From the NCBI GenBank assembly GCA_051294375.1, contig CM119266.1, positions 62,001 to 126,000 of the forward strand: a stretch of 64,000 bases of DNA, read 5' to 3'. The notes under the pieces were generated by a model. That model worked only from the letters and a program-made list of their open reading frames with translations. It had not been told where the DNA came from and ran no database searches. This DNA is from Paraspadella gotoi. Its lineage: Eukaryota; Animalia; Chaetognatha. This document shows positions 1-48,033 of this stretch, piece after piece (position 1 is the first letter of the stretch; the number at the start of each line of letters is the position of its first letter). The position numbers were made by a program, and so were the translations under genes.

Positions 1-1097
1 TAATGAATTTTAAAACTAATGACACCCCATAAGAATAAATGAAAATTAAATTCTTTTTAAGACGCAGAGACAGATCACGCTTAATTTCATGTGCACGAAA
101 AAAAAATATCGTCATGGAATTTACTTTGTCTGACCATTTGTATTTCCTGACAGTTATGCTGGAAAATACATGCAAATTAAGCAAATTAAGCGTGATCTGT
201 CTCTGAAAGAAAGAAAAAGGCTAAATTGTACTCTAGTAAAAATTTAAAGTTTTTTGGATAAAGAAAATGTAAATTTTTTGTCATTTAAATATTTGCTTGT
301 CTGATTTTACAAGCATGCTTACAAAATTCTACAAATATTATTCACAGCCTAAGTATTTATCCTTCTTTTCCACCAGCAAAAAGTAAACATTATCTTATTT
401 TAGAGAACAGGGATGTTTACTGAAAGGAGCTGGAAGACATTCAACTTCTTCACTTTGATGTTATTTTTCAATAATAAAATAGGGCAAATTTTTTAATTAT
501 TTAACTCTAGATATTACACTTTCATAATATCCCAATGTTAATGTAATTTATTATAGTTTTTTATCCAGAAATCATAAAATAACAGAAGGTTGTGGATTCC
601 CTTCGCTCGTTTAAAAAAAAAATTAACTTGCGAATTAAAGTTTGTAAGAGGAAGTCAGAATCGGCGAAAATCTTAAAAGGCGAGAATGTTGAAAAAAGGG
701 AGAGGAATTTTGGTTGTTTTTGGTCGATTTCTTCTAAACCCACAGGTCAATTTAGACGTAACTTAAGATTTACATTATTCCAGTCATTCTCTATCCAAAA
801 ATATAAAATTATTATGAAAAAAGGTTTGAGATCGACAATCGGCATTTAGTTCTAACAATTCAGATTGAACTTAAATTTTAAAAAGGTTTGTTTCATCGTT
901 GGTTCCATCGCCGTTCTTGGCTAATGGCCAAATGGTTTGTCTGATCATTTTCCCAATTCATTCCCAGATCTTTGCTCGATTTTTGATTGGTAATAATCCT
1001 TTATTTTGTTGAGTAGGGTGATTAGTAAAAACAGATTTGAGATTCAACACCAATTTATTTGATTAACGGACGATTCTTTATAATATTTATATTTATA

Positions 1098-2011
1098 ATT
1101 GAGGCAAAATGGTTTTTGTTTTACAACGAATTTTTTTTTTAATTTTTCTTAGAAAAAAAACAAAAAACGGAGATTTTAGTTGTGAATAGGAAATGAAATG
1201 GTCAGAGTGAGAGAGATTGAGAGAGAGGGAGACAGGGAGAGAGAAAATAATACATTTCAAATGTACAACAAATAAAGTTTTAAACTAAATAAACAGTTAT
1301 TAACAATTAAATAAATAAATAAGTTTGAGTGGAGGTGAAAATGAAATGTGAAAGTGAGAAAATACTTTTAGTGTTAATAAAGTTAGAAATTAAGAGTTAA
1401 GATAGAGCTCAAAGTGAGCTGGCCCCTTTGGACAAATGAGAGGCTCGGGCGATGGGGCTGGGTCATTGGCGTGTTATTGGTTGAGAGGACAATTGAACCG
1501 AACATGTTATTGTTGGCTAGGGAGGCTTCCTTGCGGAAAGATTCCAAGCGCTACTCGAATGTCTCTTTGGCCTGATACGCCTGCCAGCTGCCCTCTTCTC
1601 GCCTGCTGACGAGGTGGCGGTTGTCAGTCTTGCCGTTTTTGCACAGGAGTGCTGGACTCCTCCCCCTCCTCCTGGAGCTCACTTTGAGCTCTATCTTAAC
1701 TCTTAATTTCTAACTTTATAACACTAAATGTATTTTCTCACTTTCACATTTCATTCTCACCTCCACTCAAACTTATTTATTTATTTAATTGTTAATAACT
1801 GATTATTTAGTTTAAAACTTTATTTGTTGTACATTTGAAATGTATTATTTTTCTCTCTCCCTGTTCCCTCTCTCTCTCTCTCTCAATCTCTCTCACTCTG
1901 ACCATTTCATTTCCTATTCACTAACTAAAATCTCTATTTGTCCTCATTCTTAACGCTGTCCTCACCACTTGACCACTATTCTTTTCTCACTCTGTGTTGG
2001 AAAACTTTGCC

Positions 2012-2042
<31 letters not shown>

Positions 2043-2220
2043 CTCTCTCCCTTCTTTCAGACAAAAACTGTCCAAATTCACAAATTGTTTGACGCTGAAG
2101 AAGGCTTGCAACTAAAGCCGAAACATGTCCGTTTTTTTTTCTATGAAAAAAAAAATTCGTTGTAAAACAAAAACCATTTTGCCTCAATACATATGAACAA
2201 CGAAAAGAAAGGTTATTACC
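1098..2220 (+). mobile_element. Penelope-like 3' end (pLTR) with inverted 5' segments, forming a large palindrome
   Basis: Inner inverted arms 1170-1420/1676-1934 and outer arms 1098-1140/2146-2188. Hammerhead at 2095-2129, family tail CAACGAAAAGAAAGG near 2200, and conserved peptide AGVSGQRDIRVALGIFPQGSLP on the minus strand of the loop. Confidence 0.8.
2091..2133 (+). ncRNA. Minimal type I hammerhead ribozyme (PLE-type)
   Basis: gacg-CTGAAGA-A-GGCTT(gcaacta)AAGCC-GAAA-CATGTC-cgtt. Core, stem II, palindromic ACATGT stem III and stem I (gacg/cgtt) are all present. Confidence 0.85.
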
Positions 2221-2829
2221 AATATGTCCAATAAATAAAAAAAAAATAAATAAATAAATAAAAAAAAATAATTGAATATTACTTTCAGTCCTTGCTGTGA
2301 GAGAGAATTTAGTTTGACCAATCAGTTGAAAAATTTTCCTTAAAAACAATATTTACTTCATAAATAGATCTTATCGAATTTGTGTAAAAAAAATATTTCC
2401 TAAAATCATTTTAACATTTACTCATCAAGCGGAAGGTTGCGGAAGATCTCCCGAATAAATCAAGTGCGTTGTAATCTCAATTATCAAATTTATAAGAATG
2501 GTCATGTTTCCGCATGTTTCCATATGGATTCTTAGTTAATTTTTAAATACTCAGATACAGTAAAACATTTTTAGGACAAATTTTAATTTAATCCACGCTA
2601 GATATTCAGTTGATGACTAATATTACAAAAAATAAGGAAATGTATCATAAAGTACCTGGTTTATAGTGCGTCCGAAAAAAAGGAAAACCTTTAGATGTCC
2701 TAAAGAACTAATTTTTGAAAACTGATATTTCATGAGAAGTTTCTTACTCCTTGATAGATATAAAGCATAAATATTATTGTATATGCACTGCCCTTTTCCG
2801 TCTTTAAACTCCAAATCGATGATAGTGAA

Positions 2830-3229
2830 TTGGTTAAAATGGAAAAACAAAAAAAATCTATTTCACTATTTGAACGCCAATCGCTCATGATGGACAGGGC
2901 AATTGACTTGAAATTTTGTATGATGGTAGGATAGTATTTGATTGAGCTGGATATAAAGTTTCGATGGAATCTTTCGAGTGGAAATGAGTTAAAATGGAAA
3001 AAACAAAAGTCATATTTTTTTATTTAAATTTAACTCATAATTATTATGTTTATTAAAAATTGGATAAATAAATTAAAATGGAATTTTGTGTGTGGGTAGG
3101 AAAGTATGTGATAAAGCTGGATATAATTTTTTGATGGAATCGTAGGAGTGGAAAAGAGTTTAATTAGAAAACCAAAAGACACATTTATTTGAATTTTGAA
3201 AGTTTCTCCTCTCTATCTCTGATTGATTG

Positions 3230-3278
<49 letters not shown>

Positions 3279-3684
3279 GATGATTGATGGACCAAATTAT
3301 GCCAATTGACAAAAATATGCCAGTTGACCAAATTCTGAAAGTTGACTAAATTATGCCAGTTGATCAAATTATGCCAGTTGACAAAATTCAGCAAGTTGAC
3401 AAAATATGCCTGTTGACAAATTATGCCGTTGACCAAATTATGCCAGTTGACCAAATTATGCCAGTTGATAAGAATTATGCCAGTTGACCAAATTATGCCA
3501 GTTGACCAAATTTATGCCGGTTGACCAAAATTATGTTAATTTACCAAATTATGTCAGTTGACCAAATTATGTCAGTTGACCAAATTATGCCAGTTGACCA
3601 AATAATGCAAGATGATTAAATTATGCAAGTTGACAAGTTAGCTTATTACCACTTAATTATGGTAGGCAGATCCGACATTGTTTG
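2830..3684 (+). mobile_element. 5'-truncated HINE (Helentron-associated element) with (GATT)n and 18-bp tandem repeat
   Basis: Internal family modules, (GATT)n at 3220-3290, gttgaccaaattatgcca array at 3290-3635, and 3' subTIR GGCAGATCCGACATTGTTTG near 3665. Confidence 0.75.
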
Positions 3685-6529
3685 GGTTTCGCATACAATC
3701 AGTGTCTTTTAGACAACGAAATCTGAACTTCAATAATTACCACATTTCTTGATCTCATTGGTTAGTACGAAGCTTTCTTCATTTAAAAAAACGGTCGTCT
3801 CAAGTTATCTCCTTCTTATCAGTGAGAACTTCCCATGTAAATTTCTATGAGTTAAAAATACGGTAAGACATGATTTCTTCAATGCTTGTGCAATCTAATC
3901 TCATAACTGCTTAATTTTAGAAATAAGTATGTTTGAATTTTTATGGAACAGATAATTTTTAAAGATCGAATTCCTCTATAAGAATCCTCATGTCTTTTAC
4001 TTACACAAAAGATTTTAGGTAAGACGCCACATTATCTGATACAATTTTTTTTCCTTCATACGCTTTTCCTGATTATTTTTCTTCACCTCTTTTCTTCTCT
4101 TACTTTATATTTTCCTCTTCCTCTTTCCTCCCTACTTCTCACGCGGTCACTTACCATTTTTTTGGCCTCCTACCTTTTTCTGCCACTCATGCACTTTCCT
4201 CACCTTTTTTTTCTCAATTTCATTCTTTCCCTTTCTTTTCCCTCTTTTTCTTTCCATTTTTTCTCTTTTTTCTTACCTTACAATTAATTACTATTTTTCC
4301 CCATTGCCTTGGTTTCTTTGCCTTTCACCCCTCTTCTTTCATTCTCTCCACTTCTCCTTTTTCTTGTTTTCCCTTTCCTATTTCCTCTCACTACGTTTAC
4401 ATTGAGTCAAATCAAAGAAAATATTTAAAATGCATTATAAGAAAGAAAATGAACGGTAGCGCATGATTTTTCTTTTAATTTTCGTTGCCAAGCAAATTTA
4501 GTAAATCGACAGATTTTCGCGGAAAGATATTTCTCCGCAAAATTTCCGCAAAACTCTGTCGATTCTGCAGAAAAACAAGTCCTGATGCTTTCCATTGGGT
4601 TAAAAGGATGCGGTTTTTTTTAATTAATCAGGTGAGTATGTACCTCATCTTTTAAAACTAAATAAATGAGTTGAAAATATTCTCTTAATCAAAATAAATG
4701 CAAGTCACAAAAAGTCAACAAATTAAGAGACGTCTTTAAAAATTATTTGTGGCTAAACCAAAAAGTTTTTTTGATAATTTTTATAGGTGTTAAAGCTTAT
4801 TCAATAGGCTATATTTTCCTGTTAATTTCAACCAATTTGATTTATTTTTGTTTAACAAATTATGATAAAGACTGAACTCCAAACTTTTTGACTTGTTAAC
4901 TTTAGAATTAATCATAGGCAAACTATAAATGAATTTAAGCTAATAAATTTACCCAGAGGTAAAGAAGATAAGAAAGAACGGATTTTCCAAAGTAAAAAAT
5001 TTTTCTCAACTTCTTGGCATTCACAATCATAAGTCGTAGTAAAAATGGACAAAAATGGACATAATTTTTTTAGCTAAAAGTTGCCAAATGGTACTATTTT
5101 ATTATTAGAAACGGGAGGAGATGTTTCTAACCAATCCTTCGTTCGGCCTAATTTGTGTTGTGGTACAAAGTTAATCAACAATTGTATGTAACAACTGAAC
5201 AATAGTGGAAAGAGTCGTTTTTTTCTAAATGCAACGTTTGTACGCGGAACCTTTGCTCAAACTTGTTTTCTTGATAATTTAAAGTTCCTAACCTTATTTT
5301 GCCTTCCCACTTGCATATTGGCAACCAATTCTTAAAAAATATTGTCATCAGGAGAAAGCGCTTAGCATTATAAAGAAAGCGTACTTCATACTAGAGTAGC
5401 TAATTTATAGCTTTACTTACCGTGAAATTGTGTATCACCGCTACAAATTTCGAAAATAGTAGTTTCAAACTTTAAAATCAAAGGCTGAGGGACTAAGCAA
5501 ATATCAAAATATTTTTACAGTGACTCTTAATATAAGAAGGAATGTGTTCCATTTCCTTCCCCCCAATCTATGTGATGTTACCGTGACTCATTTATTTATA
5601 GATTTATTGATTTTCTTTCCTTTTCAAACTGCAGGGCGCGGCGTGGAGCGGCGCGGCGCTGCAGCCTGAAAAATCATGAAAAGGGAGAAAACGAGCGAGA
5701 GAAATATGCCTAACGACGCCTCGAGTCTGTTAAAGACTGTGATTTCAGACTAATCATTTGACAATAAACAAATCATTGTTTATTTAACGTAGAATCAATA
5801 CTAATAATCTTAAACTGGGATTTACTTACTAAGATTTGGTTAGATTAAAAAAGATAAATTCTCGACGTCACATCGACATTTTTTTTCCTCTCCAAAGACG
5901 AGTGAATTTTTCAGATTTCTCGAAAATTAGTTTATGAATTTTGGGCTCATAAAGGCGCCCTCTATGCGTGCTCTCTCTCTCTCTTCTCTCTCCTCTCTCT
6001 CTCGTCCTCTCTCTCTCTCGTCTCTCTCTCTTCTCTCTTCTCTTCTCTTCTCGTTATAATCTTAGCCTCTCTATACTCACCCATTTTGATAACCTTTTTT
6101 ATTCTTATTTCAATAATCTTCTAATATCTATTTTCTATTTCTCCTTTCAAGATCCATAATCCTCGTCCCCAGCCCCGTGTCCCGCTTATCTCGATTCATT
6201 TTTCTCCTTTCCAGCCCAGCGATGGAGAAGATTCCCTTTCCTTACATTTCAAGTTTCGGATTTAATTAAACTAGCTTTTATGCCGTTGAAAATAACCGAT
6301 TGAGAGAGGTTGAAGTATGGAGAGAAGAGACGAGAGAGAGAGAGAGAGAAGAGAGAGAGAAGAAAGAGAAGAGAGAGAGAGAGCCAGGTAGGGGGGGGAG
6401 ACGGCACAAAGAGACAGAAAAAAGATAGGCAGAGAGAGAAGACGTCCCTGAAAAATAAACCAAGAGGAAGATAGATAAAGATAAATAATAAAGAGATCGT
6501 AATAAAATGAATAGGATCGAGCCTACCTT

Positions 6530-6675
6530 CAATGATAACCATAATATTGATGCGATGATAACCAAAAGGATTGATGCGATGATAGTCATTCATTGATGTG
6601 ATAATAATCATTTATGATACTATGATAGTCATTCATTGATGCGACGATAGTCATTCATTGACGCAATGAATCAAT
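6530..6675. repeat. Short degenerate tandem repeat (gatgcgatgatagtcattcatt-like)
   Basis: Repeated 22-24 bp units. Also at 23450-23595. Confidence 0.6.
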
Positions 6676-7865
6676 CATCATAAATAAAACAAAACAAATG
6701 CGTGTATGAGTGAAAGAGTGAAGAGAGAGAGAAAGAAGAGAGAGAGAGAGAGAAAGAAAGAGAGAGAGAAAGAAAGAGAATAAATGCACGAAATCTCGGA
6801 TGTGAAATTTGGGATTTTGCATTGAGAAAAAAAGCGCAGAATAAATGGCGATAATAAAAGTTTTTAAAAGGAAAAAAAATAATCAAAATTTTTGATAAAA
6901 CGATCACGCAAGAGAACGTACAGAGAGAGGAGAGAGACAGAGAGAGAGAGAGAGACAGAGAGAGACATACAGAGATAGAGAGAGAAAGAGAAAGAGAGGC
7001 AGCGGTACAGTCACTGCAGAGCCTAAACTCGTTATTAAGGGTTCAGAAGAGGCAGCAACTGACAAAAATAGGAAAAAATAAGTATATATAATTTAAAGAA
7101 ATAAAAGAAAGGAAAAAATTACAATTGTTTACAATTGGAAATTGTTACAATTTTTTTCCAATCATAGCTTGTAAAAGATTTTATTTTTATTTTTATTAAA
7201 ATTAAGATTTAGCTTCTCATTTAAAGGTCTTTTGATTTCACATGTTTTTAATGATTTTTTTATGAATTTCATCAACAATAATATTTACTGCAATATGTAA
7301 ATTAGATTAATGCATTTCTATATAATAATTTGGATATTAATTTGAGTACTACAATCTCATTTGCATATGCAGTAAATCATAATGAAGTGGAATTCAAACA
7401 AAAAATACTTAATCAAAATGTAAAATGAAAATTTTCAAAGCTATTTCAAGATGAGAAGCCATATCTAAATTTTTAACTTACTATGGGGATGAGCATCGTT
7501 TCTAAACTACTCATTGTTTTATATCAAATTTGGTAGCGCACAATGTTAATGTAATTAATTATATATTTTTACCCAAAAATTAAATAATAATAAAGTTATG
7601 GATTCCTTTCGTTCGTTTAAATAAAAAAAATTAACTTGCGGAATTATAAGTTTGAAAAAGGAAGTCAGAATCGGCGAGAATCTTAAAAAGCGAGAATGTT
7701 GAAAAAATGGAGAGGAATTTTGGTTGTTTTTGGTCTATTTCTTCTAAACCCATTGGCCAATTTAGACGTGACTTAAGATTTACATTGTTCCAGTCATTCT
7801 CTATCTAAAAATATAAAAATATTATGAAAAAAGTTTTGGGATCGACTTTCGGAATTTGGTTCTAA

Positions 7866-8345
7866 GTAAAGAACAGTGGTCAGATGTTAGGACAGGAGAA
7901 AGTGAGGGAAAGGAAGGAGAGTGAGTGAATTTGAGATTGGTGAAAAAGAAAGAGAGAGAGAGACATCAATACATTTGGCAATGTACAACAGAGAATAAAA
8001 GTGAAAAACTAAAGTAACATAAGTTAATAAATAAATAAATGTTTGTGAGAATTTGGTTTAATAGAAAGAATGAAATATGAAATGGAAGAATAAGTTGTGA
8101 GGGATAGCTAAGGTATGTTTTAAGAGAAAAATAAGATGAGAAAGAGCTCAAAATGAGCTGGCCCCCCCCCCTGGCCGGGCAAATGAGGGTCATTACCGAT
8201 GTGCTAGGTTCATTGGCCTGTAATGGGCTGAAAGGATATTGTGGTGGAGTGGGATTGGTTCGGGTTTGGCAAAGATCCGGCTGGAAAAATGCCAAATGCC
8301 ACTCGTATATCTCTCTGGCCTGATACGCCTGCCGAGAGCCTATCT
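7866..8345 (-). mobile_element. Truncated copy of the PLE pLTR at 15520-16250
   Basis: Near-identical to 15729-16250. Minus-strand peptide AGVSGQRDIRVAFGIFPAGSLP...QPITGQ*. The hammerhead end is missing at the 7866 junction. Confidence 0.75.
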
Positions 8346-10234
8346 ATCTATTCCTCTAAACATTTTTCTAACAGAGATTTCCGTTCGAATCTGACTGCCC
8401 AACTTCACAAACGAGCCTGCAAGAAATTTTGGTAGAAAACAGTTGTAAAAACACACGATTCCGACAGCTTTGCATCTCAAGAGCTCGTTCCTTTTTTCTT
8501 GTGGCATTTGATAAAGATTTTACTATCAGACAAGCCAGGGGAAATGGACTACTCGTCTCCGGAGGATTTTCAAACCTCGTTTTTACTATAGAAATGAAAG
8601 GAAAATTTCACTTTTTTAAAATTATTAACGGGATTAGGGTATATTGGCATTATTAATGACACTTCAATGAGATTCCGAAAGCCTTTTGTCCCAAGAGCTC
8701 GTTCTATTTTTATTTTTATTATTGACGAATTTTTTCATATTAAACCAACATGGTAAAGTGAATTGGTCCAGTTTTCATCTCGAAATTTTTATTTAAAAAG
8801 AAATTAAAAGGAAGGTTGAGAGAAAAAACTGATTTTACCTAATATCTTTTGAAGGAACAAAGATAAAGGGATGGCAATAGTACCAAAATGAAGCTATAAT
8901 TATCGGGCACATACAAGATATAATTTGAGAATTACTTTTGCTGAAACCTTACAGGGTGAGTGTCAAACTAAGTCAAAATTATAATGAATTTTAAAACTAA
9001 TGACACCCCATAAGAATAAATGAAAATTAAATTCTTTTTAAGACGCAGAGACAGATCACGCTTAATTTCATGTGCACGAAAAAAAAAATATCGGTCATGG
9101 AATTTACTTTGTCTGACCATTTGTATTTCCTGACAGTTATGCTGGAAAAATACATGCAAATTAAGCAAATTAAGCGTGATCTGTCTCTGAAAGAAAGAAA
9201 AAGGCTAAATTGTACTCTAGTAAAAATTTAAAGTTTTTTGGATAAAGAAAATGTAAATTTTTTGTCATTTAAATATTTGCTTGTCTGATTTTACAAGCAT
9301 GCTTACAAAATTCTACAAAATATTATTCACAGCCTAAGTATTTATCCTTCTTTTCCACCAGCAAAAAGTAAACATTATCTTATTTTAGAGAACAGGGATG
9401 TTTACTGAAAGGAGCTGGAAGACATTCAACTTCTTCACTTTGATGTTATTTTTCAATAATAAAATAGGCAAATTTTTTAATTATTTAACTCTAGATATTA
9501 CACTTTCATAATATCCCAATGTTAATGTAATTTATTATAGTTTTTATCCAGAAATCATAAAATAACAGAAGGTTGTGGATTCCCTTCGCTCGTTTAAAAA
9601 AAAATTAACTTGCGGAATTAAAGTTTGTAAGAGGAAGTCAGAATCGGCGAAAATCTTAAAAGGCGAGAATGTTGAAAAAAGGGAGAGGAATTTTGGTTGT
9701 TTTTGGTCGATTTCTTCTAAACCCACAGGTCAATTTAGACGTAACTTAAGATTTACATTATTCCAGTCATTCTCTATCCAAAAATATAAAATTATTATGA
9801 AAAAAGGTTTGAGATCGACAATCGGCATTTAGTTCTAACAATTCAGATTGAACTTAAATTTTAAAAGGTTTGTTTCATCGTTGGTTCCATCGCCGTTCTT
9901 GGCTAATGGCCAAATGGTTTGTCTGATCATTTTCCCAATTCATTCCCAGATCTTTGCTCGATTTTTTGATTGGTAATAATCCTTTATTTTTGTTGAGTAG
10001 GGTGATTAGTAAAAACAGATTTGAGATTCAACACCAATTTATTTGATTAACGGACGATTCTTTATAATATTTTATATTTATAATTGAGGCAAAATGGTTT
10101 TTGTTTTACAACGAATTTTTTTTAATTTTTCTTAGAAAAAAAACAAAAAACGGAGATTTTAGTTGTGANNNNNNNNNNCTCTCCCTCTCTCCCTTCTTTC
10201 AGACAAAAAACTGTCCAAAATTCACAAATTGTTT

Positions 10235-10277
10235 GACGCTGAAGAAGGCTTGCAACTAAAGCCGAAACATGTCCGTT
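10235..10277 (+). ncRNA. Minimal hammerhead ribozyme (duplicate of 2091-2133)
   Basis: gacgCTGAAGAAGGCTTGCAACTAAAGCCGAAACATGTCcgtt. Confidence 0.85.
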
Positions 10278-13339: not shown

Positions 13340-14043
13340 AAAGAATGTTTTGCTTTAATGTCACAACTAATTAAGAACAATGTTTTTAATTTTAAACTCA
13401 AAATTCTTTGACTTTAATAAAGAATGTTTTGCCTTAAAGTCACAACTAATTAAGAACAATGTTTTTAATTTTAAACTGAAAATTCTTTGACTTTAATAAA
13501 GAATGTTTTGCTTTAATGTCACAACTAATTAAGAACAATGTTTTAATTTTAACTCAAATTCTTTGACTTTAATAAAGAATGTTTTGCCTTAATGTCACAA
13601 CTAATTAAAGAACAATGTTTTAATTTTAAACTCAAATTCTTTGACTTTAATAAAGAATGTTTTGCCTTAATGTCACATTTAATTAAGAACAATGTTTTTA
13701 ATTTTAAACTCAAAATTCTTTGACTTTGATAAAGAATGTTTTGCCTTAATGTCACAACTAATTAAGAACAATGTTTTTAATTTTAAACTCAAATTCTTTG
13801 ACTTTAATAAAGAATGTTTTGCCTTAATGTCACAACTAATTAAGAACAATGTTTTAATTTTAACCCAAAATTCTTTGACTTTAATAAGAATGTTTTGCCT
13901 TAATGTCACAAACTAATTAAGAACAATGTTTTTAATTTAAACTCAAAATTCTTTGACTTTAATAAAGAATGTTTTGCCTTAATGTCACAACTAATTAAGA
14001 ACAATGTTTTTAATTTAAACTCAAAATTCTTTGACTTTAATAA
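13340..14043. repeat. 79-bp AT-rich tandem repeat, about 9 copies
   Basis: Unit aagaatgttttgccttaatgtcacaactaattaagaacaatgtttttaattttaaactcaaaattctttgactttaata starts at 13341, 13420, 13499 and onward. Confidence 0.95.
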
Positions 14044-14764
14044 AAAATTATACAAAAAGCGAGAAAGTCCATGATTAGAATTCGTCGCTAGATTCGTTTT
14101 CCCTTTCGGTCGATTAGCCTTCGGTCCCATTTTAATAACAGCTCATAAAGTTTATCTGTTTCGTCGCCGCTTTTTATTTTCTCCTCTTTTTTTTTGCCAC
14201 ATTTTCCGAAATCGCCCCATTCTCACTGTCATCGAAATAACCGTAAATCGAAAAAATTATAATAATTACATTTTCAGATAGCTTAACGCGTGTTATTCTT
14301 GGAAATTGTAATGGTTCTGTTTGTAATTTTTTAATACTTCCAAAAAGTACAAATATGTTTCATCTTATTTTTTACGGTTCCTATTTACGTTATCCAATTT
14401 TTTTGCCTCTCAAATTCGGTAACACGAAAGTTTAAAGAGAAAATTTGATTTAATCAGTTAAGTGAGGAATTTTAAATACTAACATACGTTTAATTACTAA
14501 ATTTTATTAAATAATTAACTATCAACCGAAAAAGGTTTAGATTTCTTATAAATTTATGAGTAAAGGCTAAAGAGGTAACAGAAAAGAAATTCAATAAAAA
14601 GTTTTTAAATTTTTTTTTACCCAAAATGTATTAATTTTTTTTTCTATAACAATTCTAGGCGAGAATCTCGCTTAAAATAAATTCAACATTTTTCTATTTG
14701 TGATAATCCTTTTTGTTTGAATAGATAGAGAAAAAACGAAATTTTTTTCGCGATTAACATTTAT

Positions 14765-15519: not shown

Positions 15520-15635
15520 TATGTAATGGACAAGTTTCGACTCCTAGTTTTTGAGTCTTCATCAGCATTGAAAAAGACACTTTCACAAACTTTTTTTATA
15601 TTGGTTTAAGGAGAGAGAGAGAAGAGGGAGATATT

Positions 15636-15698
<63 letters not shown>

Positions 15699-15816
15699 AA
15701 GTGAGAGAGTTTCCAACAAAGAAATTGAGTAAAGAAAAGTGGTCAGATGTTAGGACAGATGAAAGTGAGGGAGGAAGGAGAGTGAGTGAATTTGAGATTG
15801 GTGAAAAGAAAGAGAG

Positions 15817-15866
<50 letters not shown>

Positions 15867-16250
15867 ACAATACATTTGGCAATGTACAACAGTGAATAAA
15901 AGTGAAAAACTAAAGTAACATAAGTTAATAAATAAATAAATGTTTGTGAGAATTTGGTTTAATAGTAAGAATGAAATATGAAATATGAATGAAAGAATAA
16001 GTTGTGAGGGATAGCTAAGGTAAGTTTTAAGAGAAAAATAAGATGAGAAAGAGCTCAAAATGAGCTGGCCCCCCCCCCTGGCCGGGCAAATGAGGGTCAT
16101 TACCGATGTGCTAGGTTCATTGGCCTGTAATGGGCTGAAAGGATATTGTGGTGGAGTGGGATTGGTTCGGGTTTGGCAAAGATCCGGCTGGAAAAATGCC
16201 AAATGCCACTCGTATATCTCTCTGGCCTGATACGCCTGCCGAGAGCCTAT
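15520..16250 (-). mobile_element. Penelope-like 3' end (pLTR) with hammerhead; its tail probably lies at 14702-14764, split off by the HINE
   Basis: Minus-strand order is conserved peptide, G-run/GAGCTC, CTGTCCT(A)ACATCTGACCACT motif, (CT)n, hammerhead. Tail-like AAACAAAAAGGATTATC lies left of the HINE. Confidence 0.8.
15525..15569 (-). ncRNA. Minimal type I hammerhead ribozyme
   Basis: Reverse complement aatg-CTGATGA-A-GACTC(aaaaactag)GAGTC-GAAA-CTTGTC-catt. Stems I and II covary relative to the 2095 copy. Confidence 0.85.
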
Positions 16251-18889
16251 CTATCTATTCCTCTAAACATTTTTCTAACAGAGATTTCCGTTCGAATCTG
16301 ACTGCCCAACTTCACAAACGAGCTGCAAGAAATTTTGGTAGAAAACAGTTGTAAAAACACACGATTCCGACAGCTTTGCATCTCAAGAGCTCGTTCCTTT
16401 TTTCTTGTGGCATTTGATAAAGATTTTACTATCAGACAAGCCAGGGGAAATGGACTACTCGTCTCCGGAGGATTTTCAACCTCGTTTTACTATAGAAATG
16501 AAGGAAAATTTCACTTTTTTAAAATTATTAACGGGATTAGGGTATATTGGCATTATTAATGACACTTCAATGAGATTCCGAAAGCCTTTTGTCCCAAGAG
16601 CTCGTTCTATTTTTATTTTTATTATTGACGAATTTTTTCATATTAAACCAACATGTAAAGTGAATTGGTCCAGTTTTCATCTCGAAATTTTATTTAAAAA
16701 GAAATTAAAAGGAAGGTTGAGAGAAAAAACTGATTTTACCTAATATCTTTTGAAGGAACAAAGATAAAGGGATGGCAATAGTACCAAAATGAAGCTATAA
16801 TTATCGGGCACATACAAGATATAATTTGAGAATTACTTTTGCTGAACCTTACAGGGGGAGTGTCAAACTAAGTCAAAATTATAATGAATTTTAAAACTAA
16901 TGACACCCCATAAGAATAAATGAAAATTAAATTCTTTTTAAGACGCAGAGACAGATCACGCTTAATTTCATGTGCACGAAAAAAAAATATCGTCATGGAA
17001 TTTACTTTGTCTGACCATTTGTATTTCCTGGACAGTTATGCTGGAAAATACATGCAAATTAAGCAAATTAAGCGTGATCTGTCTCTGAAAGAAAGAAAAA
17101 GGCTAAATTGTACTCTAGTAAAAATTTAAAGTTTTTTGGATAAAGAAAATGTAAATTTTTTGTCATTTAAATATTTGCTTGTCTGATTTTACAAGCATGC
17201 TTACAAAATTCTACAAATATTATTCACAGCCTAAGTATTTATCCTTCTTTTCCACCAGCAAAAAGTAAACATTATCTTATTTTAGAGAACAGGGATGTTT
17301 ACTGAAAGGAGCTGGAAGACATTCAACTTCTTCACTTTGATGTTATTTTTCAATAATAAAATAGGCAAATTTTTTAATTATTTAACTCTAGATATTACAC
17401 TTTCATAATATCCCAATGTTAATGTAATTTATTATAGTTTTTTATCCAGAAATCATAAAATAACAGAAGGTTGTGGATTCCCTTCGCTCGTTTAAAAAAA
17501 AATTAACTTGCGGAATTAAAGTTTGTAAGAGGAAGTCAGAATCGGCGAAAATCTTAAAAGGCGAGAATGTTGAAAAAAGGGAGAGGAATTTTGGTTGTTT
17601 TTGGTCGATTTCTTCTAAACCCACAGGTCAATTTAGACGTAACTTAAGATTTACATTATTCCAGTCATTCTCTATCCAAAAATATAAAATTATTATGAAA
17701 AAAGGTTTGAGATCGACAATCGGCATTTAGTTCTAACAATTCAGATTGAACTTAAATTTTAAAAAGGTTTGTTTCATCGTTGGTTCCATCGCCGTTCTTG
17801 GCTAATGGCCAAATGGTTTGTCTGATCATTTTCCCAATTCATTCCCAGATCTTTGCTCGATTTTTGATTGTAATAATCCTTTATTTTGATTGAGTAGGGT
17901 GATTAGTAAAACAGATTTGAGATTCAACACCCAATTTATTTGATTAACGGACGATTCTTTATAATATTTATATTTATAATTGAGGCAAAATGGTTTTTGT
18001 TTTACAACGAATTTTTTTTTTAATTTTTCTTAGAAAAAAAACAAAAAACGGAGATTTTAGTTGTGAATAGGAAATGAAATGGTCAGAGTGAGAGAGATTG
18101 AGAGAGAGGGAGACAGGGAGAGAGAAAATAATACATTTCAAATGTACAACAAATAAAGTTTTAAACTAAATAAACAGTTATTAACAATTAAATAAATAAA
18201 TAAGTTAGTGGAGGTGAAAATGAAATGTGAAAGTGAGAAAATACATTTAGTGTTAATAAAGTTAGAAATTAAGAGTTAGATAGAGCTCAAAGTGAGCTGG
18301 CCCCCCTTTGGACAAATGAGAGGCTCGGGCGATGGGGCTGGGTCATTGGCGTGTTAGTTGGTTGAGAGGACAATTGAACCGAACATGTTATTGTTGGGCT
18401 AGGGAGCTTCCTTGCGGAAAGATTCCAAGCGCTACTCGAATGTCTCTTTGGCCTGATACGCCTGCCAGCTGCCCTCTTCTCGCCTGCTGACGAGGTGGGC
18501 GGTTGTCAGTTCTTGCCGTTTTGCACAGGAGTGCTGGACTCCTCCCCCTCCTCCTGGAGCTCACTTTGAGCTCTATCTTAACTCTTAATTTCTAACTTTA
18601 TTAACACTAAATGTATTTTCTCACTTTCACATTTCATTTCACCTCCACTCAAACTTATTTATTTATTTAATTGTTAATAACTGATTATTTAGTTTAAAAC
18701 TTATTTGTTGTACATTTGAAATGTATTATTTTCTCTCTCCCTGTCTCCCTCTCTCTCTCTCTCTCAATCTCTCTCACTCTGACCATTTCATTTCCTATTC
18801 ACAACTAAAATCTCTATTTGTCCTCATTCTTAACCTGTCCTCACCACTTGACCACTATTCTTTTCTCACTCTGTGTTGGAAACTTTGCC

Positions 18890-18920
<31 letters not shown>

Positions 18921-18970
18921 CCTCTCTCCCTTCTTTCAGACAAAAACTGTCCAAAATTCACAAATTGTTT

Positions 18971-19013
18971 GACGCTGAAGAAGGCTTGCAACTAAAGCCG
19001 AAACATGTCCGTT
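18971..19013 (+). ncRNA. Minimal hammerhead ribozyme (duplicate of 2091-2133)
   Basis: Same CTGAAGA...GAAACATGTC motif. Confidence 0.85.
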
Positions 19014-20104
19014 TTTTTTTCTATGAAAAAAAAAATTCGTTGTAAAACAAAAACCATTTTGCCTCAATACATAGAACAACGAAAAGAAAGTTATTACCAA
19101 TATGTCCAATAAATAAAAAAATAAATAAATAAATAAATAAAAAAAAATAATTGAATATTACTTTCAGTCCTTGCTGTGAGAGAGAATTTAGTTGACCAAT
19201 CAGTTGAAAATTTTCCTTAAAAACAATATTTACTTCATAAATAGATCTTATCGAATTTGTGTAAAAAAAATATTTCCTAAAATCATTTTAACATTTACTC
19301 ATCAAGCGGAAGGTTGCGGAAGATCTCCCGAATAAATCAAGTGCGTTGTAATCTCAATTATCAAATTTAATAAGAATGGTCATGTTTCCGCATGTTTCCA
19401 TATGGATTCTTAGTTAATTTTTAAATACTCAGATACAGTAAAACATTTTTTAGGACAAATTTTAATTTAATCCACGCTAGATATTCAGTTGATGACTAAT
19501 ATTACAAAAAAATAAGGAAATGTATCATAAAGTACCTGGTTTATAGTGCGTCCGAAAAAAAGGAAAAACCTTTAGATGTCCTAAAGAACTAATTTTTGAA
19601 AACTGATATTTCATGAGAAGTTTCTTACTCCTTGATAGATTAAAGCATAAATATTATTGTATGATGCACTGCCCTTTTTCCGTCTTTAAACTCCAAATCG
19701 ATGATAGTGAATTGGTTAAAATGGAAAAAACAAAAAAATCTATTTCACTATTTGAACGCCAATCGCTCATGAGTGGACAGGGCAATTGACTTGAAATTTT
19801 GTATGATGGTAGGATAGTATTTGATTGAGCTGGATATAAAGTTTCGATGGAATCTTTCGAGTGGAAATGAGTTAAAATGGAAAAAACAAAAGTCATATTT
19901 TTTTATTTAAATTTACTCATAATTATTATGTTTATTAAAAATTGGATAAATAAATTAAAATGGAATTTTGTGTGTGGGTAGGAAAGTATGTGATAAAGCT
20001 GGATATAAATTTTTTGATGGAATCGTAGGAGTGGAAAAGAGTTTAAATTAGAAAACCAAAAGACACATTTATTTGAATTTTGAAAGTTTCTCTCTCTCTA
20101 TCTC

Positions 20105-20164
<60 letters not shown>

Positions 20165-21399
20165 GATGATTGATTGATGGACCAAATTATGCCAATTGAC
20201 AAAAATATGCCAGTTGACCAAATTCTGAAAGTTGACTAAATTATGCCAGTTGATCAAATTATGCCAGTTGACAAAATTCAGCAAGTTGACCAAAATATGC
20301 CTGTTGACAAATTATGCAGTTGACCAAATTATGCCAGTTGACCAAATTATGCCAGTTGATAAAATTATGCCAGTTGACCAAATTATGCCAGTTGACCAAA
20401 TTATGCCGGTTGACCAAATTATGTTAATTTACCAAATTATGTCAGTTGACCAAATTATGTCAGTTGACCAAATTATGCCAGTTGACCAAATAATGCAAGA
20501 TGATTAAATTATGCAAGTTGACCAACGTTAGCTTATTACCACTTTAATTATGGTAGGCAGATCCGACATTGTTTGGGTTTCGCATACAATCAGTGTCTTT
20601 TAGACAACGAAATCTGAACTTCAATAATTACCACATTTCTTGATCTCATTGGTTAGTACGAAGCTTTCTTCATTTAAAAAAACGGTCGTCTCAAGTTATC
20701 TCCTTCTTATCAGTGAGAACTTCCCATGTAAATTTCTATGAGTTAAAAATACGGTAAGACATGATTTCTTCAATGCTTGTCAATCTAATCTCATTAACTG
20801 CTTAATTTTAGAAATAAGTATGTTTGAATTTTTATGGAACAGATAATTTTTAAAGATCGAATTCCTATATAAGAATCCTCATGTCTTTTACTTACACAAA
20901 AGATTTTAGGTAAGACGCCACATTATCTGATACAATTTTTTTTCCTTCATACGCTTTTCGCTGATATTTTTCTTCACCTCTTTTCTTCTCTTACTTTATA
21001 TTTTTCCTCTTCCTCTTTCCTCACCTTACTTCTACGCGGTCAGCCTTACCATTTTCTTTGGCCCCTACCTTTTTCTGCCACTCATGCACTTTCCTCACCT
21101 TTTTTTTCTCAATTTCATTCTTTCCCTTTCTTTTCCCCTCTTTTTCTTTCCATTTTTTCTCTTTTTTCTTACCTTACAATTAATTTACTATTTTTTCCCC
21201 ATTTGCCTTGGTTTCTTTGCCTTTCACCCTCTCTTTCATTCTCTCCACTTCTCCTTTTCTTGTTTTCCCTTTCCTATTTCCTCTCACTACGTTTACATTG
21301 AGTCAAATCAAAGAAAATATTTAAAATGCATTATAAGAAAGAAAATGAACGGTAGCGCATGATTTTTCTTTTAATTTTCGTTGCCAAGCAAATTTAGTA

Positions 21400-21458
21400 A
21401 ATCGACAGATTTTGCGGAAAGATATTTTCCGCAAAATTTTCCGCAAAATCTGTCGATT
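21400..21458. repeat. Short palindrome with about 21-bp arms (also 4504-4564)
   Basis: AATCGACAGATTTTGCGGAAA ... TTTCCGCAAAATCTGTCGATT. Confidence 0.85.
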
Positions 21459-22873
21459 CTGAGAAAAAACAAGTCCTGATGCTTTCCATTGGGTTAAAAG
21501 GATGCGGTTTTTTTTAATTAATCAAGGTGAGTATGTACCTCATCTTTTAAAACTAATAAATGAGTTGAAAATATTCTCTTAATCAAAAATAAATGCAAGT
21601 CACAAAAAGTCACAAATTAAGAGACGTCTTTAAAAATTATTTGTGGCTAAACCAAAAAAGTTTTTTTGATAATTTTATAGGTGTTAAAAGCTTATTCAAT
21701 AGGCTATATTTTCTGTTAATTTCAACCAATTTGATTTATTTTTGTTTAACAAATTATGATAAAGACTGAAACTCCAACTTTTTGACTTGTTAACTTTAGA
21801 ATTAATTCATAGGCAAACTATAAATGATTTAAGCTAATAAATTTACCCAGAGGTAAAGAAGATAAGAAAGAACGGATTTCCAAAGTAAAAAATTTTTCTC
21901 AACTTTCCTTGGCATTCAAATCATAAGTCGTAAGTAAAAATGGACAAAAATGGACATAATTTTTTTAGCTAAAAGTTGCCAAAATGGTACTATTTTATTA
22001 TTAGAAACGGGAGGAGATGTTTCTAACCAATCCTTCGTTCGGCCTAATTTGTGTTGTGGTACAAAGTTAATCAACATTGTATGTAACAACTGAACAATAG
22101 TGGAAAGAGTCGTTTTTTTCCTAAATGCAACGTTTGTACGCGGAACCTTTGCTCAAACTTGTTTTCTTGATAATTTAAAGTTCCTAACCTTATTTTGCCT
22201 TTCCCACTTGCATATTGGCAACCAATTCTTAAAAAATATTGTCATCAGGAGAAAGCGCTTAGCATTATAAAGAAAGCGTACTTCATACTAGAGTAGCTAA
22301 TTTATAGCTTTACTTACCGTGAAATTGTGTATCACCGCTACAAATTTCGAAAATAGTAGTTTCAAACTTTTAAAATCAAAGGCTGAGGACTAAAGTCAAA
22401 TATCAAAATATTTTTACAGTGACTCTTAATATAAGAAGGAATGTGTTCCATCTTCCTTCCCCCCCAATCTATGTGATGTTACCGTGACTCATTTATTTAT
22501 AGATTTATTGATTTTCTTTCTTTTCAAACTGCAGGGCGCGGCGTGGAGCGGCGCGGCGCTGCAGCCTGAAAAATCATGAAAAGGGAGAAAACGAGCGAGA
22601 GAAATATGCCTAACGACGCCTCGAGTCTGTTAAAGACTGTGATTTCAGACTAATCATTTGACAATAAACAAATCATTGTTTATTTAACGTAGAATCAATA
22701 CTAATAATCTTAAAACTGGGATTTACTTACTAAGATTTGGTTAGATTAAAAAAGATAAATTCTCGACGTCACATCGACATTTTTTTTCCTCTCCAAAGGA
22801 CGAGTGAAATTTTTCAATTTCTCGAGAAATTAGTTTATGAATTTTGGGCTCGATAAAGGGCGCCCCTCTATGC

Positions 22874-22963
<90 letters not shown>

Positions 22964-23188
22964 TTAGTAATCTTAACCTCTCTATCTCACCCATTGATAA
23001 CCTTTTTTCATTCTTATTTCAATTAATCTTCTAATATTATTTTCTATTCTCCTTTAAGATCCCATAATCCTCGTCCCCAGCCTCCTTCCCCTTATCCATC
23101 ATTTTCTCCTTCCAGCCAGCGATGGAGAAATTCCCTTCCTTACATTTCAAGTTTCGGAATTTAATTAAAACTGCGTGAAAAATAACCG

Positions 23189-23298
<110 letters not shown>

Positions 23299-23634
23299 AG
23301 AGAGAGAGAGAGAGAGAGGGGGGGGAGACGGACAAAGAGACAGAAAAAAAGATAGGCAGAGAGAGAAGGACGTCCTGAAAAATAAACACAAAGAGGAAGA
23401 TAGATAAAAAAAAAAAATCTTAAAAGAATAGGATCGAGCCTACCTTCAATGATAACCAAATATTGATGCGATGATAACCAAAGGATTGATGCGATGATAG
23501 TCATTCATTGATGTGATAATAATCATTTATTGATACTATGATAGTCATTCATTGATGCGACGATAGTCATTCATTGACGCAATGAATCAATCATCATAAA
23601 TAAAACAAACAAATGCGTGTATGAGTGAAAGAGT

Positions 23635-23666
<32 letters not shown>

Positions 23667-24839
23667 AAGAAAGAGAGAGAGAAAGAAAGAGAATAAATCC
23701 ACGAAAATCTCGGATGTAAATTTGGGATTTTGCATTGAGAAAAAAGCGCAGAATAAATGGCGATAATAAAAGTTTTTAAAAGGAAAAAAATAATCAAAAT
23801 TTTTGATAAAACGATCACGCAAGAGAACGTACAGAGAGAGGGAGAGAGACAGAGAGAGAGAGAGAGACAGAGAGAGACATACAGAGATAGAGAGAGAAAG
23901 AGAAAGAGAGGCAGCGGTACAGTCACTGCAGAGCCTAAACTCGTTATTAAAGGGTTCAGAAGAGGCAGCAACTGACAAAAATAGGAAAAAATAAGTATAT
24001 ATAATTTAAAGAAATAAAAGAAAGGAAAAAATTACAATTGTTTACAATTGGAAATTGTTACAATTTTTTCCAATCATAGCTTGTAAAAGATTTTATTTTT
24101 ATTTTTATTAAAATTAAGATTTAGCTTCTCATTTAAAAGGTCTTTTGATTTCACATGTTTTTAATGATTTTTTTATGAATTTCATCAACAATAATATTTA
24201 CTGCAATATGTAAATTAGATTAAAGCATTTCTATATAATAATTTGGATATTAATTTGAGTACTACAATCTCATTTGCATATTGCAGTAAATCATAATGAA
24301 GTGGAAATTCAAACAAAAAATACTTTAATCAAAATGTAAAATGAAAATTTCAAAGCTATTTCAAGATGAGAAGCCATATCTAAATTTTTAACTTACTATG
24401 GGGATGAGCATCGTTTCTAAACTACTCATTGTTTTATATCAAATTTGGTAGCGTTCGATAGACAATTACAAACATTATCTGCATGCATAATTTCATCATA
24501 ATCCGACAATCTGTTCAAAAGTAATCGCCAAAAAGCAATCGCAAAAATCGCTCTTCAAACCGATCAACTTTCGCTTAAAATCGAGCTCGTTTTGATCCAA
24601 CAAAGATTAGTACTATGCGTAGTACTAAGCTTTAGAACCGGCGCACAGTGAGATCCTGGGCCTGAAGTTTTCAGAAAAATCCCGCTCAATTAAAAATATT
24701 TTTTTATTATATATTAATTATAAGAATAATTTTTTAAAATTTTATTTGAATATTAAAATAATTAAAAAGTAATTTTGTATAATTTTAAATAAATAAAATA
24801 AAATTATTTTATAATAAAATATATATTATTATTAGATTA

Positions 24840-25320: not shown

Positions 25321-25892
25321 ATAGAAAACGTTTTTAGATTGATCAAACAACGATTTTTATTAATATGAGATGGACATGTTTCGGCTTTAGTTTCTACAAG
25401 CCTTCATCGGCGTCAGAGATAATTATGAACTTTTAAAAAGATTTGTGCAAAGGAAATGAAAGAGAGAGAGAGAGAGTAGTTAGTAGTTAATTGTTAAAAT
25501 ATTTATCTCACCTTTAATCTAAAATTTATCTTTGTTGTACATTGCAAAAATGTATTATTTTCAAATGTTCTCTCTCTCTTTTTCTCTCTTTCAAATTTTC
25601 ACCATTTAGTTTCTTTTCACAATCTGGCTCATTCTGTCCTTATCTTAACCTGTCCTCACATCTGACCACTATTCTTCTCTCAACTCTGTGTTGGAAACTT
25701 TGCCCTCTCTCTCTCTCTCTCTCTCATTTCCTTTGCACAAATCTTTTTGAAAGTTCATAATTATCTCTGACACCGATGAAGGCTTGTAGAAACTAAAGCC
25801 GAAACATGTCCGTCTCATATTAATAAAAATTGTTGTTTGATCAATCTAAAAACGTTTTCTATCATCCAAACACAACGAAACAAAAGGAAATA
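25321..25892 (+). mobile_element. PLE inverted pLTR pair nested in the Transib-like element
   Basis: Arms 25321-25475 and about 25712-25862 each carry a hammerhead with a CCGATGA core (25373-25410 minus, 25773-25810 plus). Family 24-mer at 25646-25670 and tail CAACGAAACAAAAGG. Confidence 0.8.
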
Positions 25893-38331: not shown

Positions 38332-39209
38332 ATAATCCTTTTCTTTTTTCGTTGTTTATTGGTATTAGAGAAAAGCAAAGAATTTTGAAATTTTAACAAC
38401 GATTTTTAATTAATAGTTGGACATGTTTCGGCTTGTTTTACTCCAAGCCTTCATAGCAGATAAGAGGGCAGCCGGCAGGCGTATCAGGCCAAAGAGACAT
38501 AAGAGAGGCCCTGGGATCTTTCCGCAAGGATCGCTTCCCAATGCGCATTCACCAGTTCGGTCGTACTCCCTCTCAGCCACTGACACGCCAATGACCCCGT
38601 CTTCATCGTCCTTGTCCTTCATTTGCACAAAAAAAGGGGGGCCAGCTCATTTTGAGCTCTTTCTTTCCCTTGATTTCACTTTCTTAGTCTCCTAATTATC
38701 ACATAAACTATAAAACTACTTTCTTTCATATTTCAATTTCACTTAACTATCCCTTAGCTAATTACTTATTTATTCACTAGTTAATGTTAAATTTCACCAA
38801 TGTTAGTTTTTCAAACTTCTTTATCTTTGTTGTACATTGCAAAAAATGTATCTTTATTATTTATTTATCCCTGTTGTTTTGTTTTCTCTCTCTCTCACCT
38901 CTCTCTCTCTCTCTCTCTTTAACAACAAGTTTCACTTCTTTTTTCACAACTCACTCAATCTGCCCTCACCTTCAACCTGTCCTCACATCTGACCACCTAT
39001 TCTGTCTCACCACTTTGTTGGAAAAAACTTTTATCCCTCTCTCTCTCTCTTCTCCTCCTCTCTCTCTCTCTCTCTCTCACTCCTTCTTTTACACAAAATT
39101 TATTATTGAATGTCATATGCTGATGAAAGGCTTGAAGTAAACAAGCCGAAACATGTCCAACTATTAATTAAAAATCGTTGTTAAAATTTCAAAATTCTTT
39201 GCTTTCTCT
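38332..39209 (+). mobile_element. PLE 3' end with inverted hammerhead-bearing arm
   Basis: Arms 38367-38458 and 39118-39209. Peptide AGVSGQRDIREALG(fs)IFPQGSLP at 38475-38539, 24-mer at 38974-38997, and tail on the left arm at 38332-38366. Confidence 0.8.
39118..39160 (+). ncRNA. Minimal hammerhead ribozyme (inverted partner at 38420-38456, minus)
   Basis: CTGATGA-AA-GGCTTG(aagtaaa)CAAGCC-GAAA-CATGTC. Stem I is weak. Confidence 0.75.
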
Positions 39210-43546: not shown

Positions 43547-45040
43547 AACTGACATATTTTTGTCAATTGGCATAATTTGGTCAATCAATCAATCAATCAA
43601 TCAGAGAGAGATAGAGAAACTTTAAAAAATTCAAATAAAAGTGTCTTTTGGTTTTCTAATTTGAAAACCAAAAGACTCCTACAATTCCATCAAAAAATTT
43701 ATATCCAGCTTTATNNNNNNNNNNNNNNNNNNNNNNNNNNNNNNNNNNNNNNNNNNNNNNNNNNNNNNNNNNNNNNNNNNNNNNNNNNNNNNNNNNNNNN
43801 NNNNNNNNNNNNNNNNNNNNNNNNNNNNNNNNNNNNNNNNNNNNNNNNNNNNNNNNNNNNNNNNNNNNNNNNNNNNNNNNNNNNNNNNNNNNNNNNNGTA
43901 CTTTCCTTACCGCACATTACCAAAATTTCAATTTCGATTTATCTATCCATTTTATAAACATCATACATTTATGAGTAAATTTAAAGTAAAAATCTTCAAG
44001 TAAATATGACTTTTTGTTTTTTTCCATTAACTCATTTCCACTGTCGCACGATTCCATCGAAACACTTTATATCCAGCTCAATCACACACTTACCTACCCA
44101 TCCATTTCACAACATTTCAAGTCAATTGCCCTAGCTCCACTCGATGGCATTGGCGTTCAAATAGGTGAAAATTATTTTCCATTTTAAAATCCAATTTCCA
44201 CTCCGCACGATTCTCTCGAAAACTTCATATCGCATCTCAATCATACAGTTTTCCTACCCACACACAAAAATTTTCATACCCAATTCCATCCATCCATCAC
44301 GAGTAATTGGAGTTTTTTGCCAAGGTGACGAGACGGACGGACAGGACAAGCACAGACGGATGGACGAACATAATTTATTTTGTTGTTAAATTTTCATATT
44401 TTCGATGTTCTGACATGATATAAGTGTGTGCCCGACAAATATTGAGGGGGGACCGACGGCCGACAAAGTTGATTATAGAGTCGGGAACGTGACTCAAATG
44501 GACGAATTTTTCTTATTAACTTATACATGTGGCGAGGTTCCTGGTTGCACCACAGTGTCGACTGAAAGGCCTTGACAACTGAGTGAGATAGTTCTAAGAT
44601 TGATTATCTCACATCGCAGGGAAGGTGGATCACGTGACTTCGAAAGATTAATGTTTTTAGTCGATTTATTAATTTGTAGAAACAGAATTAATTATTCGAA
44701 GATTGATTGTGAAAATAATTGTTTAGTTTTTGGATCATTTATTTGTAGATGAAGTAAAAACGTTTTTCTCAGTTTCAATGTATTTCTTTACATTTGTCAG
44801 AGAGAGAGAATAAAACAATTTATAATGTTTAATGAGGAACATTTTATTTCGAAGATAAAATCAGAAAGTGAATCATTAACGAATTTGAATTTCAGAGGTA
44901 AACAATCACTAACTGCTTTTTGATTGGCGGTAAAACCTCTGCAGGTGATTAGGACAATCAATCAGAAACAAAAGGCTTCGAATCAGATTTAGGAAAAAAT
45001 CTAAAGCTTTAAATTAGGATTTTAGAAACGTATCTTTGTA

Positions 45041-45115
45041 GCCGCCTGGATGGCAAAGGTTTGGAATTCCCAGCGTCCCAGCAATCGAATTCGGGTTCGA
45101 ATCCTGTAATGGGTG
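45041..45115 (+). mobile_element. Possible tRNA-derived SINE head
   Basis: B box GGTTCGAATCC near 45094 preceded by a weak A-box-like TGGCAAAGG. No cloverleaf. Confidence 0.35.
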
Positions 45116-45399: not shown

Positions 45400-45735
45400 T
45401 ATAGGCGGAGCATTAAGTTGGTTGGTCAACCAGGCTCGGAAGCAAAGATTGGGTTAGACGGAATTATGGGTTATGGGTGAAAGGATACATAAGACACCGT
45501 GGAAATTTGGGGGTGACTCAAGTTCACTATAGAAAGTCATAAATGTGCATGAAGGATGGTTGTGTATAGACTTTCAATTTTGTTGCGTTTCGAATTGAGG
45601 GAGAGGAGTCTGTATCTCCTGCACCAAAGCAGGCAGGCCTTTCAGGCCAGAAAGTTATTCGAGTGGCACTAGGCATTTTTCCTGGAGAATCTTTATCCTT
45701 ATCCTTATCAGCAAGTGATGAAGACTCGTACCATG
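45400..45735 (+). pseudogene. Degenerate C-terminal coding fragment of the hammerhead PLE family
   Basis: Reads ARKQRLG*TELWVM...KVINVHEGW (resembles the GIY-YIG C-terminal RL..E...N..EG block), then IEGEESVSPAPKQAGLSGQKVIRVALGIFPGESLS after one frameshift. Confidence 0.55.
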
Positions 45736-45742
45736 TACATTA

Positions 45743-48015: not shown

Positions 48016-48033
48016 TAGAGGACAGGTTTAAGT

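Follow-up and report, generated by a model that had tools for sequence, protein, structure and literature searches.

A 22-residue segment conserved at the protein level in diverged hammerhead-bearing Penelope-like elements of Paraspadella gotoi, likely the C-terminus of their RT-endonuclease

We analysed a window of 64,000 nucleotides of Paraspadella gotoi DNA (contig CM119266.1, positions 62,001 to 126,000), in which a 22-residue peptide is conserved at the protein level in several diverged Penelope-like families. We assign a probability of about 0.55 to the reading that this peptide is a lineage-restricted, protein-conserved C-terminal docking segment, likely the tail of the RT-endonuclease of hammerhead-bearing Penelope-like elements (PLEs). 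The elements are ordinary Penelope-like relics, and the selected tail is an undescribed variant feature of them.

Loci of the peptide and conservation of its reading frame

The peptide was found at six places. Locus A has its core of 22 codons (AGVSGQRDIRVALGIFPQGSLP) at 1519..1584 of the minus strand, within the inverted 5′ copy of element A, and its duplicate A2, which was absent from the list of the first-pass annotation, lies at 18400..18465 of the same strand. The core of locus B (8267..8332, minus strand, stop at 8212-8210) is a duplicate of that of B2 (16174..16239, minus strand, stop at 16119-16117), in an element that is 5′-truncated at about 16247. On the plus strand, the core of locus C is at 38475..38539, with one base missing near codons 12-13 and the stop at 38592-38594, and that of locus D (AGLSGQKVIRVALGIFPGESLS, with EGEESVSP before it) is at 45633..45698. 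Locus D is split by an element with long terminal inverted repeats that start with CACTG and are flanked by TA (45741-48017), an arrangement like that of Tc1/mariner-type insertions, and which cuts the peptide-bearing frame at 45741.

The first-pass annotation had placed the same peptide at 1584-1519, 8332-8267 and about 16239 on the minus strand and at 38475 and 45633 on the plus strand, and had spoken of four divergent loci. Peptides and codons were found at all these positions, and the count of four was confirmed. Precisely, a self-comparison aligned 1-7538 with 16882-24453 at 96% identity and 7865-10168 with 15728-18066 at 97%; because A/A2 and B/B2 lie inside these duplicated blocks, the six places correspond to four independent loci. 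The proposed tBLASTn search, run within the window, gave 31.6-43.5 bits between loci, whereas the best score in 30 shuffled windows was 21.9 bits. A 19-base pattern at the start of the block, built from these same loci, matched at six places against 0.01 expected. The families carrying the peptide are only about 65-75% alike in their DNA. Together with the pair 28827-32476/32391-36073, the near-identical blocks of the window (90-99%) differ mostly by single-base indels in runs and have N gaps nearby; they represent either tandem duplication or haplotypes left uncollapsed in an error-prone assembly.

The core is followed in locus A by a variable tail of about 18 codons (1463..1518, minus strand) that ends in a TGA common to A, B and C. 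The claim that three loci stop about 18 codons later was borne out: counted from the first core codon, the stop that follows QP(I/L)T(R/G)Q comes at 120 bases in A2, B and B2, at 119 in A and at 117 in C. The assembled sequences of A and A2 contain a TAA in frame three codons past the core, and single-base differences between the two shift the frame there.

The annotation had described the differences between loci as mostly synonymous and had taken a dN/dS near 1 as evidence against the peptide. Over six mutually dependent pairs of loci, themselves chosen for protein likeness, pN/pS in the reported frame was 0.30, the lowest of the six frames, which supports selection acting on the protein; for the antisense frame sharing its wobble position the value was 0.51, and for the remaining four frames 1.03-1.93. 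The reported frame also had the best identity of the six (78% over the 66-base block), and among the 129 codon pairs of this block 46 differing pairs were synonymous and 28 non-synonymous.

A further comparison came from contigs of four public runs, which against B2 gave 22 listed variants, all within 16156-16213 and hence covering no part of core codons 1-8. In core codons 9-21, 7 of the 10 listed variants were silent, where a share of 0.28 was expected (p = 0.007). One of the three non-silent variants is the minority F in place of L, another is a third-position change in the same codon, and the last, at 16178, would, standing alone, turn codon 21 into a stop. This last variant accounted for about half of the depth of public run X1 at that position, was seen in 4 contigs, and possibly marks a subfamily without the tail. 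As for F and L, the annotation had read the box as ending in VAF; this holds for the B copies and not overall, L being the majority letter at 16203 (150,208 of 163,336 in X1).

Read in the antisense frame that has its wobble at the same base, 6 of the 10 variants are silent as well, and that frame is free of stops across 63-70 codons at A, B and D, so the contig-variant test alone leaves the strand unfixed. What told the two frames apart is that the swaps of Arg (CGA/AGA), Ser (AGY/TCN, here AGC/TCT/TCG) and Leu (CTN/TTR, here CTC/TTG/CTT/TTA) are silent in the sense frame only.

Divergent loose ends of contigs 3′ of the core were translated by hand, and 6 of 7 were in frame and kept G-[ST]-[LIV]-P at positions 19-22. 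Past F-P they read PGTIP, PGTLP, PGTVP, QGSLP, SGSVP and PGSLP; the seventh row (agreement 0.63) gave no fit. The motif, in the wider form G-[ST]-[LIV]-P, is thus carried by more families than those seen in the window.

Anatomy of the elements and signals in their DNA

The whole insertion A spans 1098..2188 of the plus strand and consists of an inverted, 5′-truncated copy joined at about 1676 to a pseudo-LTR on the plus strand; GAGCTC is common to both arms at the junction, and the same tail stands at both outer ends. Inverted arms with the same tail were also seen in insertion C, where an inverted hammerhead with its tail (38367-38461) caps the 5′ end of the element, and in 25321-25862. The latter is a fifth, shorter element, without the hairpin described below and without the peptide, and its hammerhead core reads CCGATGA, not CTGATGA. 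Copies were either single or in inverted pairs.

Elements A, B2 and C carry predicted Penelope-type minimal type I hammerheads in their pseudo-LTRs. These are at 2095..2130 (plus strand) in A, at 15528..15565 (minus strand) in B2, whose element ends at about 15520, and at 39120..39158 (plus strand) in C; copies of the hammerhead of A are at 10239 and 18975 of the plus strand, and a variant is at 25773. All three have the core CUGANGA...GAAA and the end C(A/U)UGUC, and stem II covaries between families (GGCTT/AAGCC vs GACTC/GAGTC); a search of Rfam at the gathering threshold returned no match. The peptide of C and that of B2 are on the strand of the ribozyme, with the first core codon 645 and 674 bases, respectively, upstream of the hammerhead.

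The order 3′ of the core is about 18 variable codons, TGA, a hairpin block, AT- and TC-rich islands, hammerhead and tail. The hairpin block is a conserved non-coding stretch with a 6-bp hairpin, about 40 bases past the stop, at 1405..1425 on the minus strand and also at 8144-8164, 16051-16071, 18283-18303 and 38639-38659; its pattern had 5 matches in the window and 0 in 100 shuffles. Contigs join hairpin to peptide through differing intervening sequence (joints at 16074 to 16190-16208), so that these are the two blocks that the families have in common. The intact-looking copies have peptide and hammerhead on one strand, the peptide standing 18 codons ahead of the common stop and about 650 bases upstream of the hammerhead, a layout that supports its position as the one where the end of the Penelope ORF belongs, at the boundary of ORF and pseudo-LTR.

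Upstream of the core the copies are cut after a short distance (about 3 codons in B, 7 in C and 30 in A). Depth of the contigs of the public runs was near 0 at 16254-16261, which places the cut in B about three codons ahead of the core, with a different repeat beyond it; we accordingly rejected the DNA upstream of B as the ORF of the element, the depth showing an unrelated flank. This flank (16262-16900 and 8355-8990) is a high-copy repeat with a stop-free frame of 133 aa on the plus strand (16342-16743), broken in the other copy, and for the frame beside B2 neither a Pfam match nor a usable ESM Atlas match was found. The best reading of the copies in the window is that they are truncated, non-coding relics of the end of a Penelope-like element.

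Other repeats were noted in the window. Four consecutive long frames (250, 285, 144 and 174 aa) at 50026-53020 of the minus strand look like one broken transposase-like gene and had no Pfam match below E 0.01. At 45040-45110 a stretch resembling a tRNA, with a GGTTCGAATCC box, was recognised by eye and may be the head of a SINE. Tandem arrays are at 3290-3660, 13340-14048 and 61443-61746, with units of about 18, 78 and 72 bases, respectively, and the 18-base array recurs at 11430, 20180, 43050 and 48830.

Part of the conservation appears in the DNA itself. Codons 1, 2, 4 and 5 show no third-position difference among the four loci, and 6 of 7 later comparable sites are variable (Fisher p = 0.015, for sites chosen by hand). 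The pseudo-LTR holds several conserved non-coding islands, and the DNA at the common stop is CCAATGA, which we take to be a look-alike of the CCAAT box. Among the copies counted, all of them peptide-bearing, three begin just upstream of the peptide, which would fit a promoter role. The start site and promoter of Penelope have been placed in the pseudo-LTR. In the mechanism that we propose, the DNA of the peptide would be the 5′ edge of the pseudo-LTR and carry promoter signals as well; this would account both for the lack of third-position change in the first five codons and for the CCAAT at the stop, promoter function perhaps being what conserves the ends of the motif.

These same features, with the antisense pN/pS, could be taken to mean that all of the conservation is at the level of DNA or RNA, or of the antisense frame GK[IM]P[SN]ATR[MI][ST][LF]WP, the peptide being a by-product. 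We consider this improbable. It would fit the first five and the last two codons and not the middle of the block, where two-base Ser swaps and first-position Leu and Arg swaps are silent in sense only. A shared RNA structure over the peptide was not supported, as the folding z-scores of the four peptide regions were 0.67, -1.11, -0.08 and 1.15 and no compensated pair occurred among 36 predicted. For codons 9-22 the DNA-level or antisense reading is largely refuted.

The protein that would carry the segment and its possible partner

Canonical PLEs have one ORF with the endonuclease at its end (PMC8557442). On this plan, and from the position of the peptide, we hold it probable that the peptide is fused to the Penelope enzyme ORF. 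The frame of RT and GIY-YIG would continue through an acidic, Pro/Gln/Arg-rich linker of roughly 40-60 residues. In locus A the linker (1585..1676, minus strand) has an acidic part (EEGEESS) and then a Pro/Gln/Arg-rich part, ends at the inversion junction and has no in-frame ATG; the acidic patch is shared with D (EGEESVSP). Upstream loose ends of contigs at 16240-16247 (5 of 8 rows translated) have no stop and no Met, resemble A for up to 10 codons and read PP(R/H)(Q/H/R)Q(A/V)R(R/G)G.

The first-pass annotation had seen, before D, a block like the C-terminus of a GIY-YIG domain followed by an acidic linker. The acidic patch was found, and a decayed block (AEH...DWVRR...LWVK...N) is in frame with D at 45417..45539 of the plus strand, its likeness to the end of a Poseidon-type GIY-YIG domain being by eye. 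This block had no Pfam match, a protein word search with it gave no candidate homologue, and it is without the conserved E of the Poseidon KEA. Two in-frame stops separate it from the peptide, and D has no linked hammerhead or hairpin. A loose endonuclease-end pattern, written after inspection of D and loosened to fit it, matched the window once, at a site in frame with D and 61 codons ahead of it, and 40 shuffles gave 1 match. No Pfam match to an RT or GIY-YIG family was obtained among 111 ORFs of the window (104 of 119 filtered ORFs plus an earlier set, the remainder being duplicates, already covered or omitted, with the duplicated block 16882-24453 left out) or among 12 read-through frames. 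Thus the claim of a selected extension beyond the endonuclease stood as regards selection at the protein level and the place at the ORF/pseudo-LTR boundary, and found no copy among the loci of the window in which the peptide is joined to RT or GIY-YIG.

The segment could instead end a separate small ORF, accessory or belonging to the pseudo-LTR and unfused to the RT-endonuclease, which we regard as unlikely. In its favour, all three hammerhead-linked loci begin within about 90 bases upstream of the peptide, as if it were part of a short amplified unit, the endonuclease upstream is unproven, and searches found no annotated PLE protein with the peptide. Against such an ORF, neither the 30 codons available at A nor the translated loose ends contain an in-frame ATG, canonical PLEs have a single ORF (PMC8557442), and the endonuclease-end-like block is in frame at D, by the post hoc pattern above.

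Returning to the C-terminal tail of the RT-endonuclease as the preferred reading, the 22-residue segment common to several diverged hammerhead-bearing families would be the extended C-terminus of that protein and likely acts as a docking motif on a flexible linker. A docking function is likely from the disordered linker, the short helix, the Gly and the hydrophobic I-F-P: the core would form a short helix (QRDIRVAL) with a Gly cap, and I-F-P a hydrophobic plug packing on the surface of a partner. This partner would more probably be the own protein of the element or a host factor other than PCNA. In the Anolis Poseidon protein a C-terminal helix is a predicted dimer contact (PMC11167929), which makes a contact with the own protein of the element a fair candidate.

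The annotation had proposed a link to PCNA from the resemblance of the peptide to a PIP box. The canonical box is Q-x-x-aliphatic-x-x-aromatic-aromatic, and 43% of the confirmed binders are without one aromatic and 10% without both (PMC6881253). A non-canonical box (QRDIRVAL) that would tether the retroelement protein to PCNA, as in LINE-1 ORF2p, which needs its PIP box (PMC10830420), can be proposed from the sequence, as 4 of 4 loci keep Q1 and I4 unchanged, the motif lies in a disordered tail, and Q-x-x-aliphatic-x-x-A-[FL] is rare in the six frames of the window (8 matches, 6 of which are this peptide). Positions 7-8 are nevertheless A-L in the majority, F at position 8 occurring only in the B copies and as a minority of the depth. 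Positive flanks drive the affinity of PIP boxes and may compensate for weak cores (PMC6881253), whereas the seven-residue flanks here have net charges of 0/0, 0/0 and +1/-1; family A has an RR pair further upstream. Eleven other positions are conserved equally with the box, with invariant residues both before it (A-G-x-S-G) and after it (G-I-F-P-x-G-[ST]-[LIV]-P) that a PIP box would leave unaccounted for, and chance alone yields a loose PIP pattern in about 6 of every 100 stretches 40 residues long. Moreover, LINE-1 has its box internally, between EN and RT, and R2 lacks such a box (PMC10830420). The likeness to a PIP box is therefore limited to Q1 and I4 and is weak, and we rate a PCNA tether as quite unlikely. 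It is a little less probable still that a PLE lineage evolved a PCNA-binding, PIP-like tail independently of LINE-1, with its DNA doubling as the pseudo-LTR promoter.

Searches for relatives of the peptide outside the window gave no homologue. With a profile of three peptides, 0 of 1862 candidates at E <= 10 were retained in the word search of longer proteins and 0 of 13 in that of proteins of similar length. HMMER against 1.84 billion representatives returned 3 matches, all repeat proteins that score through internal repeats, and the peptide profile against PDB sequences gave 3 matches at E 0.48-3, none a homologue. The B peptide matched in the ESM Atlas only short unnamed clusters without Pfam, and no relative was found in viral contigs. 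Among 177 candidates in metagenome contigs, 2 loci were rejected as chance, in prokaryote-like DNA and one of them in a shifted frame of another gene. Words of the peptide were absent from the supplement of Craig et al., with entries to about 400 characters that probably leave ORF ends outside and with the Naiad, Chlamys and Hydra consensuses. The annotation knew of no described PLE extension of this kind; in the open-access literature searched, neither such a tail nor a link between PLEs and PCNA was found described.

Relation to known systems

In the literature searched, the endonuclease is given as the end of PLE proteins, and we found no host partner reported for these. A short segment that is constant across families only about 65-75% alike would mark a contact needed by the element, and it offers a small bait for the partner. 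Were PCNA the partner, target-primed retroelements would have acquired replication-coupled insertion on two occasions; with another partner, the segment keeps its use as a family marker and as an example of DNA that carries coding and promoter signals at once.

With the canonical PLEs that carry an endonuclease (Penelope/Poseidon), the elements of the window share the minimal type I hammerhead in the pseudo-LTR, the tail after it, the strong 5′ truncation and the inverted 5′ copy (PMC8557442, PMC11167929), and their inverted 5′ copies, tails and hammerhead cores match the PLE layout as described (PMC8557442, PMC4209133). The block at D resembles, by eye only, the Poseidon endonuclease end in the supplement of PMC8557442. 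They differ in the conserved segment about 40-60 residues past the expected endonuclease end, of which the portions of PMC8557442 and PMC11167929 at hand make no mention, and in that RT and endonuclease are absent from the window, so that the clade was left unassigned.

Compared with PIP boxes, that of LINE-1 ORF2p included, the segment agrees in its Q at position 1 and in the aliphatic position 4, and differs in having no aromatic pair, uncharged flanks, a conserved context of 22 residues and a C-terminal rather than internal position (PMC10830420, PMC6881253). With the minimal PLE hammerheads and non-LTR retrozymes, as these are presented in PMC4209133 and bioRxiv 10.64898/2026.07.22.740005, the elements have in common short dispersed copies, a minimal hammerhead, a palindromic helix III and diverged families within a genome. 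Non-LTR retrozymes are, however, described there as non-coding, whereas the copies of the window, which form no tandem arrays, keep a codon-conserved ORF end.
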